NCBI GenBank assembly: GCA_965215145.1
Contig: OZ244038.1
Location: forward strand, 90,257 to 154,256
DNA from: Rhodothermales bacterium
GTDB lineage: Bacteria; Bacteroidota; Rhodothermia; Rhodothermales; JANQRZ01
DNA: 64,000 nt
Direction of reading: 5' to 3'
Part shown: piece after piece, positions 20,114 to 64,000 of the stretch
Layout of the letters: the number at the start of each line of letters is the position of its first letter
Numbering within the stretch: position 1 is the first letter of the stretch
Position numbers and translations under genes: made by a program
Notes under the pieces: model-generated
Seen by the model: only the letters and a program-made list of their open reading frames with translations
Databases searched by the model: none
Told to the model about the DNA's origin: nothing

Positions 20114-22606
20114 TCACGGCGCTTCGGCCGCGGCGGGCGTCCGGTCTTCGAGCCATTGGAGCAGCGCGGGCAGGAAGACGAGCGCCGCCAGCAGCGTGGC
20201 GCCGATGCCGATCAGCGCGAGCACGCCCATCGAGCGGAGGCCGGGGTGGAAGGAGAAGAGCAGGCCGCTGAACCCGATCATCGTGGTGAGCGCGCCGACG
20301 GTGACGTGCTCGCCCGTCGAGCGCAGCACGCGGAGGACGGAGCCGGGGCCCTCCTCGCGGTAGCGGTGGACGAGGTGGACCCCGCAGTCGTTGCCGATGC
20401 CGAGCACGGCCGGGAGCACGACGAGGTTGTAGAACGTGAGGCTCACCCCCGTCAGTACCATCAGCCCGAGCATCCACAGCACCCCGACGACGAGCGGGAG
20501 CAGCGCCAGCAGCGCCCACCGCACCGAGCGGAAGAAGAGCAGCATCAGCGCCGCGATGAGCGCGAACGTGAGGCCCACCATCAGCGGGCTCTCGGCCAGC
20601 ATCAGCCGCAGCATGTCCGCCGCCACGAGCGAGGTCGAGCCGGCGTAGTAGACCCGCCCGTCCGCCGTCGTGACCGTGCCGACCCGGTCGCTGAAGGCCA
20701 TCGAGAGGCGGCCGTCGGAGAGGCCCACGGCCGGGTAGATCGTGACGAACGTGCCGACCTCGCCGGACTTCGCCGTGAACGGCCGCTTCAGCTCCTCCGG
20801 CACCTCGGCCAGCGCGATGGGGGCCGTGGTGCTCGCGGCGCGGCGGAGGCGGGCGATCTGGCCGGTGGTGTCGGCGCTGAGGAAGGGGTCCGCGGTGAGC
20901 GCGCGGACCTCGGCGATCCGCGCCAGCTTGGCCTCCGCCGCCTCCGGCGTCAGCGGGAACCGGTCCTGCACGCTCTCGACGGACTGGATGAGGGTGTCCT
21001 CGGCCGCCAGCGCCCGCACCGCGGCGACCACCGACTCGGCCTCCTCCGGGCTGCTCACGACGACGTAAGCCGGGTTGCGGCCGGCCCGCCGCCCGAAGGC
21101 CGGGTCGATCTGGCGCTGCTTCGAGCGGTAGGCTTCCAAGGGCGGCTCGAGCCGGTCGAAGTCGTACTCGAACCGCTCCTGCGGGAGCGCGAGCAGCGAG
21201 AGGCCGACGAGGACGAGGCTCGCCGCGACGACGGCGCGAGCAGCGGGGAACGGGCGGCGCCCCGCGGCGGGGGCCTCCGCCACGGCCGCCGCTTCGAGCC
21301 GCAGCAGCCCGAGCCGCTCGGCGAGCACGAGCAGCGCCGGCAGCACCGTCAGCATCGCCACGACGGCGAAGAGGATCCCCGTCCCGCCGACGAGGCCGAA
21401 CTCGCTGAACCCGCGGAAGTCCGCGGCCGTCAGCGCGAACAGCGCGACGGCCGTGGTCGTCGCGCTCACGGCGACGGCCTGCCCCGTCGAGGCGAAGGCC
21501 GTCTCGGTGGCGCCGGGCACGTCGCGGCCCCGACCGCGCTCCTCGACGTAGCGGGCGTAGTAGTGGATGCCGTAGTCGATCCCCAGCCCGAACAGCACCA
21601 GCGCCAGCGTGCTCGTCATCAGGTTCAGGCTGCCGATGGCGAGCTCGGCGAGCCCGAACGTCCACGCCAGGCTCATCAGCAGCGGCAGCCCGATCAGCAG
21701 CGCGGTGAGCGGTAACCGGGCCACCGCCCGGAGGAGGCTCGCGCCGGAGGCGCCGTTGACCTGGAGCGTCTTGTACAGGAAGTAGAGCACCACGAACAGC
21801 AGCACCGCCGTGACCCCGGCCCCGAAGCTGTCCCGGACGTCGTCCGTCACTGACTCGATCTCGACGAGTTGGCGGAGCAGCCGCCCCCCCGCCGTCACCT
21901 CCATCTCCGGGTGGAACCCCGCCGGCTGCATCCCCGCCACGAGCGAGTCCACGCGGCGGTAGGTGGCGCGGACGAACCCCACGTCGGTCTGGGCCCCGGC
22001 CGGGAGGAACCGCAAGGCCAGCACGGTCGAGTCCTCGGAGACGGAGTACTCCGACGGCTGAAGCTCCTCCAGCGACGCCGCGAGGTCGTCGTCCGCCGGC
22101 TCCTCCTCGTCCTCCAGCCCGAGGTCGTCGTCGAGGTCGAGGAAGAACGGGTTGGCCGCGAGGCGGGCGTCCTCGATCTCCGCCTCCAGCGCCTCCACCA
22201 CTCCGTCGAGCTCGCGGTCGGTGGCGAAGTAGAGCGCGTTTCGGGCAAGGAAGGTGGTGTCGCGGCGGTAGTCGTAGCGGGTGAAGAGCGGCGCCCCGTC
22301 CGGCGTCCGCAGCGCCATCATCTGCGGGATGAGCGCCTCGGCGAAGGCGCGGTTCGCCTCGAACGACGGGCTCGCGATCCCCACGTCGAGCAGCGTCTCC
22401 GAGCCGACGGTCTCGCGCAGCCGTTCGAGCGCCCGCACGCTGGGGTAGTCCTCCGGGACCAAGTTGGCGAGGTCGGTGTCGATCTCGAGCCGGAGCGCCA
22501 GCGCGAGCCCGGCTGCGGCGAGCGCGAGGGCCACGACGAGCACGGCGACGGGGCGGCGGACGAGCAGCCCGGCGAGCGGGCGGAGGGCGTCGGAGAGGCG
22601 AGACAC
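20114..22606 (-). CDS. MMPL/RND-superfamily exporter (HpnN-like)
   Basis: 830 aa from GTG 22606 (residue 130 of track ORF 20114-22993). Two 6-helix bundles separated by large loops. GIDYGIHYYARYVEE and GIGNDCGVHLVHRYREE are the paired MMPL signature segments. Confidence 0.8.
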   Translation of the reverse strand: MSRLSDALRPLAGLLVRRPVAVLVVALALAAAGLALALRLEIDTDLANLVPEDYPSVRALERLRETVGSETLLDVGIASPSFEANRAFAEALIPQMMALRTPDGAPLFTRYDYRRDTTFLARNALYFATDRELDGVVEALEAEIEDARLAANPFFLDLDDDLGLEDEEEPADDDLAASLEELQPSEYSVSEDSTVLALRFLPAGAQTDVGFVRATYRRVDSLVAGMQPAGFHPEMEVTAGGRLLRQLVEIESVTDDVRDSFGAGVTAVLLFVVLYFLYKTLQVNGASGASLLRAVARLPLTALLIGLPLLMSLAWTFGLAELAIGSLNLMTSTLALVLFGLGIDYGIHYYARYVEERGRGRDVPGATETAFASTGQAVAVSATTTAVALFALTAADFRGFSEFGLVGGTGILFAVVAMLTVLPALLVLAERLGLLRLEAAAVAEAPAAGRRPFPAARAVVAASLVLVGLSLLALPQERFEYDFDRLEPPLEAYRSKQRQIDPAFGRRAGRNPAYVVVSSPEEAESVVAAVRALAAEDTLIQSVESVQDRFPLTPEAAEAKLARIAEVRALTADPFLSADTTGQIARLRRAASTTAPIALAEVPEELKRPFTAKSGEVGTFVTIYPAVGLSDGRLSMAFSDRVGTVTTADGRVYYAGSTSLVAADMLRLMLAESPLMVGLTFALIAALMLLFFRSVRWALLALLPLVVGVLWMLGLMVLTGVSLTFYNLVVLPAVLGIGNDCGVHLVHRYREEGPGSVLRVLRSTGEHVTVGALTTMIGFSGLLFSFHPGLRSMGVLALIGIGATLLAALVFLPALLQWLEDRTPAAAEAP

Positions 22607-31760: not shown

Positions 31761-31776
31761 GGTTTCACGTGAAGCC
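31761..31776. promoter_or_regulatory. weak parS-like sequence
   Basis: GGTTTCACGTGAAGCC matches TGTTTCACGTGAAACA at 13 of 16 positions. It directly abuts element D. Confidence 0.2.
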
Positions 31777-58539: not shown

Positions 58540-59532
58540 TCAGGTCGTTGTGGACTCTGCATAGTGCTCCGCTAGCGCGCGTGCCCGCTCCTGGAGCCTG
58601 TCGCGCAGTCCCTCCGGCTCCAGGGCGACTACGTCTGTGCCGTACCGGAGCAGCCACCGGGCCACGTAGTCGAGGTTCTCGAAGTAGAACGTGACCCGGA
58701 TGCCCTCGTCGGTCTCCACCACCTCCTCGACCTCGGCCGGGATGCTGCGCTTGGCCCAGCGGTAAGCACGGGGACGGAAGCGCAGGGTGATCCTCTCGTT
58801 GCGGGGGCTCGACCCCTTCTCCCTTAGGTACTCCTGAAGGTTGAAGGTCTCCGGAGGCTGGAACGAATCCATCAGCACCCGCATCTTGCGGATGCGGTCG
58901 AGGCGGAAGTTGCGCACGTCCCTGCGGAGGTGGTCGTAGGCGATGAGGTTCCACGAGTCCGAATAGTACACGAGCCCGAGCGGGTCCACCTTCCGCTTCG
59001 TCAGCTCATCCCGACTCGCCACGTAGTACTCCATCCACACGCTCCGCTGCCGAGCGACGGCTTCGGAGAGCTCGTACCACTGCCCCTGCTCGTCGTGACC
59101 GCCTCCGGGGTCGAGGTTGCGGACGTAGGGCGCGATCACGGTGCTCTCCTGCAACCGGTCGATGTAGACCCGGATGGGCTCGGGCAGCACAGAGCGGATC
59201 TTCAGCGCGACCTCGTCGGCGTCCGTCCGCAATGAGTTGTCGGGCTGCAGCTTTGTGAATGCGGTGCCGACGAGGAGCGTCGCCGCCTCACGGGCGGTGA
59301 ACATCAGGGGGGGGAGCTGGTAGCCCTCGAGGATCTCGTATCCACCCCCGTCGGCGTAGGTCAGTGGGACGCCGGACTCCGAAAGCGTCCGCAGGTCGCG
59401 GAAGACCGTGCGTCGGCTGACGCCGAAGTGCTCGGCGAGATCCTTCGACGTCATGCTCGGGCGGTTCTGCAAGAGCAAGACCAGGGCGAACAGACGTTCG
59501 GTCTTGTTCAGTGTGCGCTCCGACTGCGGCAT
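58540..59532 (-). CDS. HTH + WYL domain transcriptional regulator (YafY-like)
   Basis: 330 aa. RLFALVLLLQNRPSMTSKDLAEHFGVSRRTVFRDLRTL (HTH). WYL region VDPLGLVYYSDSWNLIAYDHLRRDVRNFRLDRI. C-terminal extension domain. Confidence 0.85.
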   Translation of the reverse strand: MPQSERTLNKTERLFALVLLLQNRPSMTSKDLAEHFGVSRRTVFRDLRTLSESGVPLTYADGGGYEILEGYQLPPLMFTAREAATLLVGTAFTKLQPDNSLRTDADEVALKIRSVLPEPIRVYIDRLQESTVIAPYVRNLDPGGGHDEQGQWYELSEAVARQRSVWMEYYVASRDELTKRKVDPLGLVYYSDSWNLIAYDHLRRDVRNFRLDRIRKMRVLMDSFQPPETFNLQEYLREKGSSPRNERITLRFRPRAYRWAKRSIPAEVEEVVETDEGIRVTFYFENLDYVARWLLRYGTDVVALEPEGLRDRLQERARALAEHYAESTTT

Positions 59533-59606
59533 GGGGATCTGCGGTGGGGTGACACCAAAGTGGCATCACACCAACGCCTATTACTGCCTCGGGTTGCTCC
59601 TGTCCG

Positions 59607-60272
59607 CTACGTTTGCTTCCAGCCGACGTGAACGAGTCGCTTGTTGAGGCCATGATGGCTACTCGGCAATGGGAGGTCTTCGACGACGGTGTGCGGGAAC
59701 GTGTGCATCAGCGTGATCTTCTCCTCGTCTAGGTCTCCGCCCTTCAAGGCGATCAGACCCGAGGCCCACCCCTCCTCCCCCAGCGTGTCGTTCGGAGCTA
59801 GGACTCGCTCTGTCCACCGCCACAGTTCTGCGAGAGGAGCAGTGGCTCTCGAGACGGCATATCCGGCCTCGCCGTCCCATCCCTCCGCCCTACCATGCCA
59901 AGCGCTGACGTTCTCAAGACCGAGCTCGCGTATCATGTCCCTAACGGCTCGGACCTTCTTGCCGACGCTATCGACTAGCACGAATTCTACCTCAGGAAAC
60001 GCCACAGCAAGCGGGAGACCGGGAAATCCGCCCCCAGTGCCCCAGTCGACCACCCTGGTTCCGCTTTTGAACGGGCGGACCGCTATGCAAAGGCTGTGGA
60101 GCACGTGGCGCCTCCAGAAATCTTTGGTGCTCGCTTGGGAGTAAAGGTTGAGACGCCGGTTCCAGACGAGGGCCCGCTGCATAAGGAGCTCTAGCTTCTC
60201 CCGCTGCTGCTCGTTAAGCGCTGCGGTCGGATCAGACAGTCTCACGGCTTCCCATTGTTTCATGTGAAACAC
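59607..60272 (-). CDS. rsmG: 16S rRNA (guanine527-N7)-methyltransferase
   Basis: 221 aa (GTG 60272 or ATG 60263). [38 protein letters not shown]. Confidence 0.85.
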
Positions 60273-62175
60273 CGCGCTGCCCGTCCGCTCCCCCTGGGAG
60301 TCGGCGACCTCGAAGCAGCACCATCAAGGCCGCTATGTCAGCAGGGCTCACCCCGCTGATCCTACTCGCCTGACCGAGGGTCTGAGGCCGAATACGCTCC
60401 AGCTTCTGTCGTGCCTCCGTTGAGAGTGAAGTCAGGCGGCGGTAGGCTAGGTCCTCGGGAAGGACCTCGTTCTCCACCCGCTCCATCCTCCGAACCGCCT
60501 GGTGCTCGCGCTCAATGTAGCCAGCGTACTTGAGTTCGGTCTCTACCGTCGCTGCCGTCTCTTCCATACCAGGAGACTCTACCACCACGTCCGAGGCCCC
60601 CGCCGCCTCCAGAAGTGATCGGAGCTTCACCTCCGGGCGAGCTATGAGCTTCGCAAGCCGTGACGGATGGGAGATGGGGGCCGTGCCGATCCGGCGGAGG
60701 TAAGGATTCACGCGCTCAGGCTCTACCGCCCGCTCCTCGAGCCCAGATCGGGTTGCTGCTACGGCATCCCATCGGGCTTCCATCCGACGTAGCCGCTGGA
60801 AGGAGGCGAGCCCGATCTGATACCCCAAGGGAGTGAGCCGTGAGTCGGCGTTGTCTTGGCGGAGTAGTAGACGGTGCTCTGCTCTGGAGGTGAACATCCG
60901 ATACGGCTCCTCCGTCCCCTTCGCGACCAAGTCATCAATCAGGACTCCGATGTACGCCTGGGAGCGAGGCAGAACCACAGCGGCTTCCCCCCGCAGCTGC
61001 CGGGCGGCATTAACCCCGGCGATCAGGCCCTGTGCAGCCGCCTCCTCGTACCCCGTCGTGCCGTTGATCTGGCCTGCGAAGAAGAGCCCGCTTACCCGCT
61101 TGGTCTCGAGCGAGTACCGAAGCTGGTAGGGGGGGAAGTAGTCGTACTCGATGGCGTAGCCAGGCCGAAGGAGGTGACACCGTTCGAGCCCTGACACGTG
61201 CCGAAGGGCTGTCAGCTGGACGTCCTCGGGCAGCGAGGTCGAGAAACCGTTGACGTAAACCTCGTAGGTGTTCCTGCCTTCGGGTTCGAGAAAGAGCTGG
61301 TGGCTGTCCTTGCCGGCAAACCGCTCTAGCTTGTCTTCGATGGATGGGCAATAGCGCGGCCCGACGCCTTTAATGCGTCCTTTGAACATCGGGCTGCGGC
61401 TAAAGCCAGTCCGGAGGAGACGATGCACTCCGGGGTTGGTAGAGGTCAGCCAACATGGGAGCTGCTGCTGCGGGAGAGCGTCTGTGAGGAAGGAGAAGGG
61501 GCTCGGGTGCTCGTCGCCGGGTTGCTCCTCCAGCTGGTCGTAGTCAATGGTCCGGCCGTCGATGCGAGGCGGTGTCCCCGTCTTGAGTCGGCCTGCCTCG
61601 AAACCCAGCCGCACCAGTGAGGCGGTGATCCCCGAGGCGGCACGCTCGCCGGCTCGCCCACCACCAAACTGCTGCTCACCGAGGTGAATGGTGCCGTTCA
61701 AGAAGGTGCCGTTCGTCAGCACCACCGCCGCGGCGTGGAAGACTCGCCCCGTCTGCGTCTGGATACCAGTTACAGCGCCATCCTCGGTGAGCACCTCCAC
61801 CGCCATGTCCTGACGCAAGTACAAATCGGGTAGGGACTCAAGCTCCTCGCGCACCGCCGCTGCGTAGGCGACCCGATCACTCTGCGCCCGTGGGCTCCAC
61901 ACCGCCGGCCCCTTGCTGCGGTTGAGCATGCGGAACTGGACGGCGGTTCGATCTGTGACGCGCCCCATCAATCCTCCGAGCGCATCGATCTCGCGGACGA
62001 GTTGCCCCTTTCCTACCCCGCCGATGGCCGGATTACATGACATCCGCCCGGCGGCCTCGAGGTTCATCGTGACGAGTAGGGTGTGGGCTCCCATCCGAGC
62101 CGCAGCGTGGGCAGCCTCAGCGCCAGCGTGCCCAGCACCGACTACGATCACGTCAAATCGATCAATTTCGCCCAT
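60232..62175 (-). CDS. mnmG: tRNA uridine 5-carboxymethylaminomethyl modification enzyme
   Basis: 647 aa. [69 protein letters not shown]. Confidence 0.95.
60256..60271. promoter_or_regulatory. parS-like centromere site
   Basis: TGTTTCATGTGAAACA matches the TGTTNCACGTGAAACA consensus at 15 of 16 positions. It lies inside the 3' end of mnmG and at the rsmG start. Confidence 0.6.
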
Positions 62176-62247
62176 AACGCCTCAGGATAAACTTCGAGTG
62201 GGTTGGGTTAAAACCTAACTTCTTAAGAAGTGACTACGGAGGCCGCC

Positions 62248-63702
62248 TCACTTACCGATACAGAACCGCGCGAAGATGGCCCCGAGCACGTCGTCTCTGG
62301 TCACCTCCCCCGTCACCCCCCCGAGCTCGTCCAACGCAAGGCGGAGGTCGTGTGCCACCACGTCCGGCGAACTCCGCTTCGCCAATGAGGCTCTAGAGGC
62401 GGATAAGGCACGGCGAGCGTGACTGAGGTGCTGATAGTGACGCTGGTTGAGAACAATCAAGGAGGCGGAGGCATCGGCTGCCTTTTCGAAGACGACGGAA
62501 GCAAGCCGGACACGCAGAGGGTTCAAAAGCTCGGGGGCGACGGTAGCGTCACGAGCAGAGAGTGGTAGATAGGCGGCAGCCGAGGTGACTGCTTCGGAGT
62601 CGGGTGAAGCCAGGTCCGCCTTATTACCGATAAGGAGGAGAGGGACGCTGGAGGGCTGCGCTCCGCTGAGCTCCGCATCATCTTGTTTCACGGTGAAACA
62701 GGCTGGAGGGGGGCTCGGCGAGGCGAAACGTCTCAGCCACTCTCGCTCGTCGGGGTAAAGCCCGGCTTGCAAGTCGAAGACGTAGAGTAGCAGATCGGCG
62801 TGGGTGGCGGCGTGGGTGGCGCGGCGGACGCCCTCGGCCTCGATCTCGTCCTCTGCCTCGCGCAGCCCGGCCGTGTCGACGAAGCGGAAGGCGACCCCCG
62901 CGATCTCAACCTCCGCTTCGATCTCATCGCGGGTCGTCCCCGGCGTACCACTGACGATGGCGCGGTCGTACCCGACGAGCGCGTTCAGGAGCGTGCTCTT
63001 ACCCGCGTTGGGGCGCCCCGCGATCACCACCCGCACGCCGTCGCGGACGAATGCACCGAGGCGGTAGGAACCGAGGAGCCGGTCGAGCAAAGCCTCTGCG
63101 CGGTCGATGGCTTCCAGAAGCTGCGTACGGTCGGCGAACTCGACATCTTCCTCGGTGAAATCGAGTTCCAGCTCCACCAGCGCGCAGAGGCCGAGAAGCT
63201 CCTCGCGGATTTCGGAGAGCGCGGCCGAATAGCGGCCTTCGAGATGGCCGAGCGCGACGCGGTGCGCGAGCGTGCTCTTCGCGTGGATCAGCTCGGCGAC
63301 GGCCTCGGCCTGGGCGAGGTCGAGCTTACCGTTGAGGAACGCGCGCTCGGTGAACTCGCCGGGGCGGGCGAGGCGGGCGCCACCGTCGAGCAGCGCGCGG
63401 AGGACGAGCTGTGGCGCCACGTCGCCGCCGTGGCACGAGACCTCGACCACGTCCTCCCCCGTCGCGCTGCGCGGCGCGCGGAACACCGTCGCCACAACCT
63501 GATCGAGCCGTACCCCCTCCCCCGACTCGAAGTAGCCGACGTGCGCGGTGTGGCTCTCTGCGCCCGCGAGGTCGCAGCCCGGCAGGCATCGGTCTGCGAT
63601 CACGACGGCTTCAGGCCCGGAGAGGCGGACGATGGCGAGCGCCGCCTGCCCCCGCGCCGTGGCGATCGCTGCGATGGTGTCTGTGTCCGGGAGGACCTGC
63701 AT
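62248..63702 (-). CDS. mnmE: tRNA modification GTPase
   Basis: 484 aa. TIAAIATARGQAALAIVRLSG, GRPNAGKSTLLNAL, DTAGLRE, GNKADL, C-terminal FCIGK. Confidence 0.9.
   Translation of the reverse strand: MQVLPDTDTIAAIATARGQAALAIVRLSGPEAVVIADRCLPGCDLAGAESHTAHVGYFESGEGVRLDQVVATVFRAPRSATGEDVVEVSCHGGDVAPQLVLRALLDGGARLARPGEFTERAFLNGKLDLAQAEAVAELIHAKSTLAHRVALGHLEGRYSAALSEIREELLGLCALVELELDFTEEDVEFADRTQLLEAIDRAEALLDRLLGSYRLGAFVRDGVRVVIAGRPNAGKSTLLNALVGYDRAIVSGTPGTTRDEIEAEVEIAGVAFRFVDTAGLREAEDEIEAEGVRRATHAATHADLLLYVFDLQAGLYPDEREWLRRFASPSPPPACFTVKQDDAELSGAQPSSVPLLLIGNKADLASPDSEAVTSAAAYLPLSARDATVAPELLNPLRVRLASVVFEKAADASASLIVLNQRHYQHLSHARRALSASRASLAKRSSPDVVAHDLRLALDELGGVTGEVTRDDVLGAIFARFCIGK
62684..62700. promoter_or_regulatory. 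17-bp parS-like variant (extra central base)
   Basis: TGTTTCAC-G-GTGAAACA has both parS half-sites intact with one additional central G. It lies inside mnmE codons 335-340 (CFTVKQ). Confidence 0.4.
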
Positions 63703-63725
63703 GGCGGGGCGTCTAGCTCCGGGTC

Positions 63726-63742
63726 GGTTTCACGGTGAAACA
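63726..63742. promoter_or_regulatory. 17-bp parS-like variant (extra central base)
   Basis: GGTTTCAC-G-GTGAAACA shares its last 16 nt with 62685-62700. It lies in the intergenic region between the yidC stop and the mnmE start. Confidence 0.4.
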
Positions 63743-63796
63743 AAGAGGGCGCCCCCGACCGGTGGGGACGCCCTCGAAGGTGCGGACGGAGGGGTA

Positions 63797-64000
63797 CTAC
63801 GGCCGCGCCTTCTTCGGGCGGCGCGGTTTCTTACCCTTTGCCTGCCCGTTCCGGCCGTTCGTTCGTGCGCGCCCATTCTTACCGGCGGCGCGCCCCCTCT
63901 TCCCCTGCTGCTGCTTCTCCTCCTCCACCTGCTCGTGGACCTCCTTGTTGATCAGCTTCTGCTGGACGATGGTGAGGAGGTTGAAGACGAGGTAGTAGAG
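63797..64000 (-). CDS. yidC: membrane protein insertase YidC, C-terminal end (5' part beyond window)
   Basis: Not in the track (no start in the window). The reverse strand reads LYYLVFNLLTIVQQKLINKEV... followed by a Lys/Arg-rich tail and TAG (63797-63799). Position upstream of mnmE fits the usual yidC-mnmE synteny. Confidence 0.6.
   Translation of the reverse strand, partial: LYYLVFNLLTIVQQKLINKEVHEQVEEEKQQQGKRGRAAGKNGRARTNGRNGQAKGKKPRRPKKARP

Follow-up and report, generated by a model that had tools for sequence, protein, structure and literature searches.

Odd-spaced parS-like sites around mnmE point to a spacing variant of the bacterial centromere that is under selection in a Rhodothermales clade

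Introduction

Can a bacterial centromere site be kept in a genome with one base pair too many at its centre, or is such a site simply one that is decaying? This question is raised by a 64-kb stretch of DNA (referred to below as the window) from a Rhodothermales bacterium, in which the yidC-mnmE-mnmG-rsmG gene cluster carries two 17-mers that resemble the chromosomal centromere site parS with an extra G:C pair between its arms. Canonical chromosomal parS (TGTTTCACGTGAAACA) is the nucleation and cytidine triphosphate (CTP)-dependent loading site of ParB/Spo0J, and in B-DNA one extra base pair (bp) shifts one arm by 3.4 Å and ~35 degrees. Surveys of parS allow mismatches and no insertions or deletions (indels), and would presumably miss sites of this kind. 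Keyword searches of the literature found no description of a parS with one additional central base pair, and the exact 17-mer and 13-mer strings were found in none of 8 million full texts. The analysis below shows that the 17-mers are real, unchanged across a Rhodothermales clade and in one case located within a coding gene, and that they therefore represent a selected spacing variant of parS.

Results

A first-pass annotation had placed the two 17-mers at 62684-62700 (site A) and 63726-63742 (site B'), which is borne out by direct reading of the sequence, as is its statement that one is coding (within mnmE) and the other intergenic (between the 3' end of yidC and the mnmE start codon). They have 16 consecutive identical bases in common (62685-62700 and 63727-63742). 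Both carry the inverted arms (T)GTTTCAC/GTGAAAC(A) of parS, perfect over 7 bp, with one G:C pair in between; what they lack is the direct abutment of these arms (i.e. the 16-bp even palindrome with its central CG step), the extra pair being present in both and in all 21 sites of this type found in the clade (see below). The 15-nucleotide (nt) core GTTTCACGGTGAAAC occurs exactly twice in the window, while in 100 dinucleotide-preserving shuffles a mean of only 0.02 matches was found with up to two mismatches allowed, and not one shuffle reached four strand-matches. The identity of the arms to those of canonical parS, far above chance, therefore counts in favour of a parS-type site. A spacing scan of the window (two 8-bp parS arms, spacers of 0-7, up to three mismatches) returned A and B' as the only sites with a spacer of one (+1), and two with abutting arms (+0), at 60256 (site C) and 31761 (site E). 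The distances that the annotation had given between A, B' and C (1 kb and 2.4-3.5 kb) are correct, the exact values being 1042, 2428 and 3470 bp. Canonical spacing, which it had assigned to site C, holds as well, although the sequence is not perfect (one mismatch). Site E is a weaker fourth site, additional to those annotated.

Whether the odd spacing is more than a coincidence can be judged from relatives. In a scan of species-representative genomes the closest relatives by MnmE were Rhodothermales metagenome-assembled genomes (63-66% identity). Ten related loci (L001-L003, L081, L083-L086, L160 and L209; each ~21 kb, MnmE 60-66% identical to that of the window) were compared, so that the clade set consists of 11 genomes and 261,145 nt; all ten have the gene order rpmH-rnpA-yidC-mnmE-mnmG-rsmG in common. 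In this set 21 +1 sites and 23 +0 sites were found. All of the former fall within -1935 to +1473 of the mnmE start, and the latter lie at +3361 to +3477 and at +3785 to +3893, plus two distal ones, the spacing class being constant at every given position (Table 1). Both arms are perfect in 18 of the 21 +1 sites, against a chance expectation for the exact +1 core of ~0.001 in 261 kb. Site A is present throughout, and either B' or its counterpart in the mnmE-mnmG spacer (site B) is found in nine of the 11 genomes at no more than one mismatch. In a phylogenetic footprint the majority-base fraction was 0.96-0.98 for the core versus 0.49-0.68 for the 40-nt flanks.

Conservation at orthologous positions between species, a property of parS which the annotation had proposed to look for, is thus strongly present. 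Random decay, against which it had argued from the repeated spacing, is rejected by the same +1 core standing at the same place in relatives whose flanks have fully diverged. The +1 sites are neither absent from the ten relatives nor scattered: within the clade DNA they are limited to the parS cluster, i.e. they lie together with canonical-spacing sites, 2.4-3.5 kb away, in the rpmH-rnpA-yidC-mnmE-mnmG-rsmG region, which, judging by its gene content, may be close to the replication origin (oriC).

Site A shows that selection acts on the DNA and not on the peptide. Its coding-strand sequence, TGT TTC ACC GTG AAA CA (C-F-T-V-K-Q), encodes part of the loop that connects G3 to G4 in the GTPase domain of MnmE; within the Rhodothermales this loop is hypervariable, in length as well as in sequence. 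At this place F-T-V-K is kept in ~36 MnmE protein clusters, in which the preceding residue is only ever R, C, G or S (NGT codons) and the following one only H, R, Q or P (CNN codons). In nine full-length mnmE genes, that of the window included, the codons are fixed as NGT TTC AC(C/G) GTG AAA CNN, despite a GC content at third codon positions of 0.72-0.87 and only 7-15% T-ending codons. Because the adjacent residues vary only within NGT and CNN codons and the synonymous codons are fixed, site A is under selection at the DNA level, and in the loop region only the parS-like core is conserved at that level. Directly behind it the loop carries variable-length acidic inserts of up to ~30 extra residues, composed of loosely repeated S-E-A-E-F-G-E-A-K-like units (window 62600-62700, MnmE residues ~325-355; also in P0003, P0004, P0024 and P0027).

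It could still be supposed that there is no function at the DNA level at all, the FTVK peptide (which is indeed invariant at protein level in the clade) being what is selected and the second site being a chance or decaying parS. With neighbouring residues that vary only as NGT/CNN, synonymous positions fixed against the genomic codon bias, a loop that is otherwise hypervariable and an identical core in non-coding spacers of nine genomes, this is exceedingly improbable. Non-functional decoys, which the annotation had listed among its explanations, are likewise contradicted by the invariant cores in fully diverged flanks and by the codon-level constraint in mnmE.

Not only the arms but also the distance between them is selected. 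Coding constraint as the cause of the extra base in site A was ruled out: as the frames read by hand show, two of the three can encode a canonical 16-mer (V-S-R-E or F-H-V-K), the loop tolerates change, and the +1 spacing is also retained in the intergenic sites. In fact, B and B' keep it in nine genomes even though the loss of 1 bp would be cost-free there. Since the intergenic sites retain the extra base and coding does not force it in site A, the spacing itself is under selection.

The central base of the 21 +1 sites, read on the mnmE-sense strand, is C in 11 and G in 10, and never A or T; moreover, G in one genome may be C at the orthologous position in another, which fits a symmetric dimeric reader. 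With G or C always at the centre, one arm always retains its native next base (GTTTCAC-G). This bias is of little weight for site A, where the central base falls on a third codon position of a GC-rich genome; at the nine intergenic +1 sites it is suggestive, although the genomes are not independent.

The 17-mer is self-complementary, and B' (ending 24 nt ahead of the mnmE ATG) adjoins the T-tract of a terminator-like hairpin behind yidC, the T-tract TTTGTTTCAC being partly supplied by the left arm of B'. An RNA or DNA hairpin (terminator, attenuator or an element like the repetitive extragenic palindromic sequences) unrelated to any parS-binding protein was therefore also considered, the more so as a longer, 25-bp palindrome with the same core (see below) is flanked by A- and T-runs at gene ends. 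However, only a 6-bp A/U-rich stem with a 3-nt loop is possible in the RNA fold of B', the region around it is no more stable than shuffled sequence (z = -1.08), and no Rfam match was found in window 59000-64000 (E <= 1). Site A is coding, the core occurs only around mnmE in the clade DNA and is not dispersed as a repeat would be, compensatory pairing-preserving changes in the arms were seen in none of the 21 sites, and the arms are exactly the same as in the canonical parS nearby, all of which makes a hairpin very unlikely.

The canonical-spacing sites of the same cluster show how this clade handles parS. At +3299 to +3477, orthologues of site C with a perfect 14-nt core are present in all 10 relatives and also in two sister loci, L207 and L208. 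In the window both canonical-spacing sites have a mismatch in the 14-nt core and both +1 sites have perfect arms, site C being perfect in the relatives. Site D is a parS 16-mer within the invariant RsmG peptide V-S-R-A-T, which is written in five successive A/T-ending codons (GTT TCA CGT GCA ACA) despite a GC content of 64-68% in these genomes, its lone mismatch being forced by the Ala codon. The RsmG of the window has the same peptide in GC-rich codons and no site (equivalent position ~59830-59850). It follows from this codon-sculpted site that genes of this clade have parS sites written into them. Downstream of mnmE, at a distance of a few kb, clusters of perfect canonical parS are also found in more distant Rhodothermales, and the mnmE neighbourhood is therefore the usual parS region of the order.

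Site E is intergenic, with a SIS-domain (GKRP-like) gene on one side and mfd on the other, and stands 62 nt ahead of the longest mfd open reading frame (ORF). L081 has a perfect-core site at this junction, and in L207 and L208 one is found about equally far from mnmE. The junction is ~32 kb from mnmE in the window versus ~9.5 kb in the relatives; between the WYL regulator and mfd the window thus appears to have undergone an insertion or a rearrangement of roughly 20 kb.

In a neighbour-joining tree of MnmE (loop removed, no support values) the sequences with FTVK form two neighbouring groups, a large one with the B arrangement and that of the window with the B' arrangement. A lineage without FTVK is nested beside the window's group; it is represented by L207 and L208, which have the same gene order and carry only site C and, near mfd, the distal canonical site. 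None of sites A, B/B' and D is present there, and the +1 sites and site D have therefore been gained or lost together, one gain followed by loss being indistinguishable from two gains in a tree without support values.

As to the surroundings, no DnaA-box cluster was found within the window. In L002, six DnaA-box-like 9-mers (TTxTCCACA, one mismatch each) lie within ~400 bp at 20657-21049, including a lower-GC patch; this cluster, not seen in the other loci, is a candidate oriC and lies ~9.7 kb from the +1 site inside mnmE. The WYL-domain regulator beside rsmG was considered as the binder of the +1 sites and rejected, as L083 and L084 keep these sites without that gene at that position.

Outside the clade, a metagenome scan for the 17-mer YGTTTCACSGTGAAACR gave at least 120 loci (L087-L206). 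Among the 120 matches listed, only L160 belonged to the Rhodothermales clade, and the isolated high-GC matches look like background. At least 44 of the listed loci (GC content 0.36-0.56, from rumen and human gut) carry the core within a ~25-bp palindrome, AAT-S-C-GTTTCAC-S-GTGAAAC-G-S-ATT, which is often present in 2-5 copies per contig, is always intergenic and stands 37-190 nt ahead of gene starts; no canonical 16-mers were found on the contigs of these 44 listed loci. Genes of Gram-positive conjugative elements (RepA_N/DUF6017, ArdA, ArdC, sortases and SpaA-type pilins, extracytoplasmic function sigma factors, a CHAP-domain protein) are found in 23 of the 44. Five listed loci encode a protein of 600-750 amino acids (aa) with two ParB_N domains that matches TIGR00180 (ParB/RepB/Spo0J), DNA-binding part included; in L118 and L131 the palindrome is located 40-50 nt upstream of this gene, and in PLSDB the protein has no relatives above 35% identity. 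By analogy, the arrangement looks like an operator network of the type formed by the plasmid protein KorB and its operator OB, and it provides circumstantial evidence that a ParB-family protein can read the odd-spaced core.

Two further observations were made among these loci. In two metagenome contigs of 62% GC a second odd palindrome, TGTCTCAC-G-GTGAGACA, the arms of which are altered, stands 50 nt from CGTTTCAC-G-GTGAAACG (L123 7321-7337 and 7371-7387; L175 41-57 and 91-107). In L128, an unrelated contig of 72% GC, a single +1 17-mer (TGTTTCACGGTGAAACG, 1530-1546) lies ~70 nt from the 5' end of a tblastn match to an rsmG homologue (35% identical to the RsmG of the window), and may be an independent odd-spaced parS or a product of chance.

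Table 1. Sites and neighbouring features. Coordinates are those of the window unless a locus is named; clade positions are counted from the mnmE start; +1 and +0 denote one or no base pair between the arms
Feature	Coordinates	Strand	Spacing	Clade position	Occurrence in clade	Description
Site A	62684-62700	.	+1	+955 to +1003, inside mnmE	11/11 genomes	parS-like 17-mer TGTTTCACGGTGAAACA; arms TGTTTCAC-G-GTGAAACA
Site B			+1	+1422 to +1473, mnmE-mnmG spacer	7 genomes, two with one mismatch	
Site B'	63726-63742	.	+1	-39 (window), -15 (L209), yidC-mnmE spacer	window and L209	parS-like 17-mer GGTTTCACGGTGAAACA; arms GGTTTCAC-G-GTGAAACA
Site C	60256-60271	.	+0	+3361 to +3477	11/11; perfect 14-nt core in 10 relatives	16-mer TGTTTCATGTGAAACA, one central mismatch; mnmG 3' end / rsmG start
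Site D	L001 13893-13908; L002 13890-13905; L081 13825-13840; orthologues		+0	+3785 to +3893, inside rsmG	10 relatives, not window	TGTTTCACGTGCAACA, fixed mismatch
Site E	31761-31776	.	+0			distal parS-like 16-mer GGTTTCACGTGAAGCC, one mismatch in 14-nt core; intergenic
mnmE	62248-63702	-				tRNA modification GTPase, 484 aa, host of site A; Pfam TrmE_N, MnmE_helical, MMR_HSR1
mnmG/gidA	60232-62175	-				647 aa, site C in last codons; Pfam GIDA, E = 2.9e-162
rsmG/gidB	59607-60272	-				longest ORF, true start perhaps further downstream; domain search
WYL-domain regulator	58540-59532	-				beside rsmG; domain search
yidC 3' end	63851-64000	-				truncated by window edge; 58% identity to L081 YidC residues 551-599; synteny rpmH-rnpA-yidC-mnmE in relatives
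Terminator-like hairpin	63745-63775	-				GC-rich, 3' of yidC; 12-bp stem, 10 G-C pairs
25-bp palindrome (examples)	L118 643-659, 4922-4938, 7759-7775; also L092, L148, L152, L205					
Two-ParB_N protein	L118 694-2946; L205 3409-5358; L202 4019-5827; also L131, L155	+ (L118); - (L205, L202)				long Lys/Pro/Ala-rich linker

Discussion

Compared with canonical chromosomal parS, the 17-mers have identical 7-bp arms and the same habits: they occur in the same neighbourhood, are few per cluster, are sometimes intragenic and are conserved between species. What sets them apart is the extra G:C pair at the dyad, which turns the site into an odd palindrome of 17 bp and is maintained beside canonical sites. 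The reading favoured here is that they are functional protein-binding sites under purifying selection which would be bound by the resident ParB within the centromere cluster, a reading that we give about an even chance. It would work as follows. The +1 and the canonical 16-bp sites would together form a conserved multi-site cluster in rpmH-rnpA-yidC-mnmE-mnmG-rsmG; a dimer of the resident ParB would bind the 17-mer through its helix-turn-helix domains, with one 7-bp arm (GTTTCAC) for each of them; since these DNA-binding domains make no mutual contact on parS, an extra G:C pair between the arms would be tolerated; and the 17-mers would thereby add nucleation or loading points for ParB to the cluster. 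Both ParB as the binder and CTP-dependent loading upon binding are what we infer here.

Published structures and binding data make this plausible. In the crystal of Caulobacter ParB on parS each subunit sits on one half parS, without protein-protein contact between the subunits (PMC8367383), a single arm is enough for chromosomal ParBs to bind, in vivo as well as in vitro (PMC5961200, PMC5450999), and KorB, a clamp of the ParB family, loads at the odd palindrome TTTAGC-G-GCTAAA (PMC11790492). The absence of subunit contact, the binding of half-sites and the odd palindrome of KorB together indicate that binding of ParB to the 17-mers is plausible.

Several points weigh against it. No ParB gene was found in the window or in any of the related Rhodothermales loci, either by a scan for the GERRxRA motif or by tblastn of the window and all loci (with a Bacillus subtilis Spo0J sequence and the ParB-like protein of the conjugative elements as queries). 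We know of no ParB that is reported to use even as well as odd spacing. Two different readers would likewise lead one to expect that each position strictly conserves its spacing class. The counts cover 261 kb of clade loci, and proximity to the origin is deduced from gene content alone, the only DnaA-box cluster being that of L002 and not one of the window. Finally, a 4-bp central insertion in the parS of an IncC plasmid abolished ParB binding (PMC10954446).

The resident ParB could also bind the 17-mers only as two independent half-sites, without productive clamp loading and in a local role (e.g. tuning transcription of mnmE and mnmG, or shaping the ParB domain). The insertion result, concerning dimeric binding in another ParB, would agree with this, as would the documented half-site binding cited above and the location of B' at 24 nt (window) or ~15 nt (L209) ahead of the mnmE start and of B at ~20-90 nt upstream of mnmG. 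Heptamers of the half-parS type (GTTCCAC/GTTTCAC) bound by Pseudomonas aeruginosa ParB (PMC5961200), and those of Burkholderia ParBc1 (PMC5450999), show that one arm suffices for specific contact, from which it follows that a 17-mer should at least be bound arm by arm. However, those half-sites are single arms, number in the hundreds per genome, are mostly of unknown function and are not conserved in position, whereas the Rhodothermales 17-mers have both arms perfect, a fixed spacer and orthologous locations. Lone half-sites need neither two perfect arms nor an exact 1-bp spacer, yet 18 of the 21 sites have both arms perfect, and site A, at 1 kb inside a gene, is in an unlikely position for an operator. 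A purely local half-site role is thus quite unlikely.

A different protein altogether could be involved, namely a second member of the ParB family (a Noc- or KorB-like paralogue) or another dimeric helix-turn-helix protein that reads the +1 sites with the same arm specificity and an odd-spacer geometry, so that two systems would operate side by side. The strictly position-specific spacing class, without interconversion even in intergenic DNA, would be in line with this, and so would the joint absence of both +1 sites from L207 and L208, where canonical site C stays. The multi-copy odd core on gut and rumen conjugative elements, with a two-ParB_N protein of the ParB/Spo0J family in five of the 120 listed loci, points in the same direction: together, the ParB-like proteins and the odd core indicate that ParB-family readers of odd spacing plausibly exist.

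The published precedent is KorB with its operator OB on the IncP plasmid RK2 (TTTAGC-G/C-GCTAAA), which, like the 17-mers, is an odd palindrome with a single central S (PMC11790492). All 21 sites of the clade share this odd length and central C or G, and the reading of OB by KorB shows that the ParB family can use odd spacing. OB is unlike the 17-mers in its arms, in being plasmid-borne, in its 12 dispersed regulatory operators and in having a dedicated KorB with a partner, KorA (PMC11790492); the 17-mers have GTTTCAC/GTGAAAC arms, lie among chromosomal housekeeping genes and have no ParB-family gene nearby, and are therefore not OB sites.

The Noc-binding site (NBS, ATTTCCCGGGAAAT) of Firmicutes is a precedent for a ParB paralogue that reads a parS-derived chromosomal palindrome. 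It differs from parS in the bases of its arms and not in spacing, has an even number of base pairs, occurs all over the chromosome outside the terminus region and is confined to Firmicutes. The 17-mers, with parS-type arms and odd spacing, do not have its ATTTCCC/GGGAAAT arms or its even spacing. In the sopC repeat of the F plasmid (the SopB site), 7-bp inverted arms enclose two non-palindromic central bases (PMC5450999); it is unlike the 17-mers in its even length of 16 bp, its sequence and its arrangement as a plasmid tandem array.

A second reader has three points against it. Site D, of canonical spacing, was gained or lost along with the +1 sites, which links both classes; in the ten clade loci, each of ~21 kb, no gene for a paralogue was found up to ~10 kb from the sites; and the degeneracy of the flanking bases (positions 1 and 16/17) is alike in the +1 and +0 classes. 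A second reader is on balance considered unlikely, and the resident ParB the most likely binder, with a ParB paralogue as its main rival.

In a wider sense, the data may describe an odd class of parS, with canonical arms and an extra G:C pair, that is a selected functional ParB-family site beside even parS and is served either by one ParB with two geometries or by a second reader, the same core having been adopted independently on Gram-positive gut and rumen conjugative elements by a ParB-family protein as a multi-copy operator or centromere. This combined proposal is tentative, and we put its chances slightly below even.

Conclusions

It is thought that parS acts as a catalyst, by which two ParB subunits are brought into a defined geometry that leads to CTP-dependent closure of the clamp. 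A natural 17-mer with the same arms and one additional base pair is a ready probe of the part that geometry plays in nucleation versus loading. If one ParB does use both spacings, motif searches that allow mismatches and no indels would under-count centromere sites; if instead a second reader exists, it would be a new case of diversification within the ParB family by spacing and not by base specificity. For the Rhodothermales themselves, the locus shows how a cis-element is written into coding sequence, by way of a tolerant protein loop and forced rare codons.

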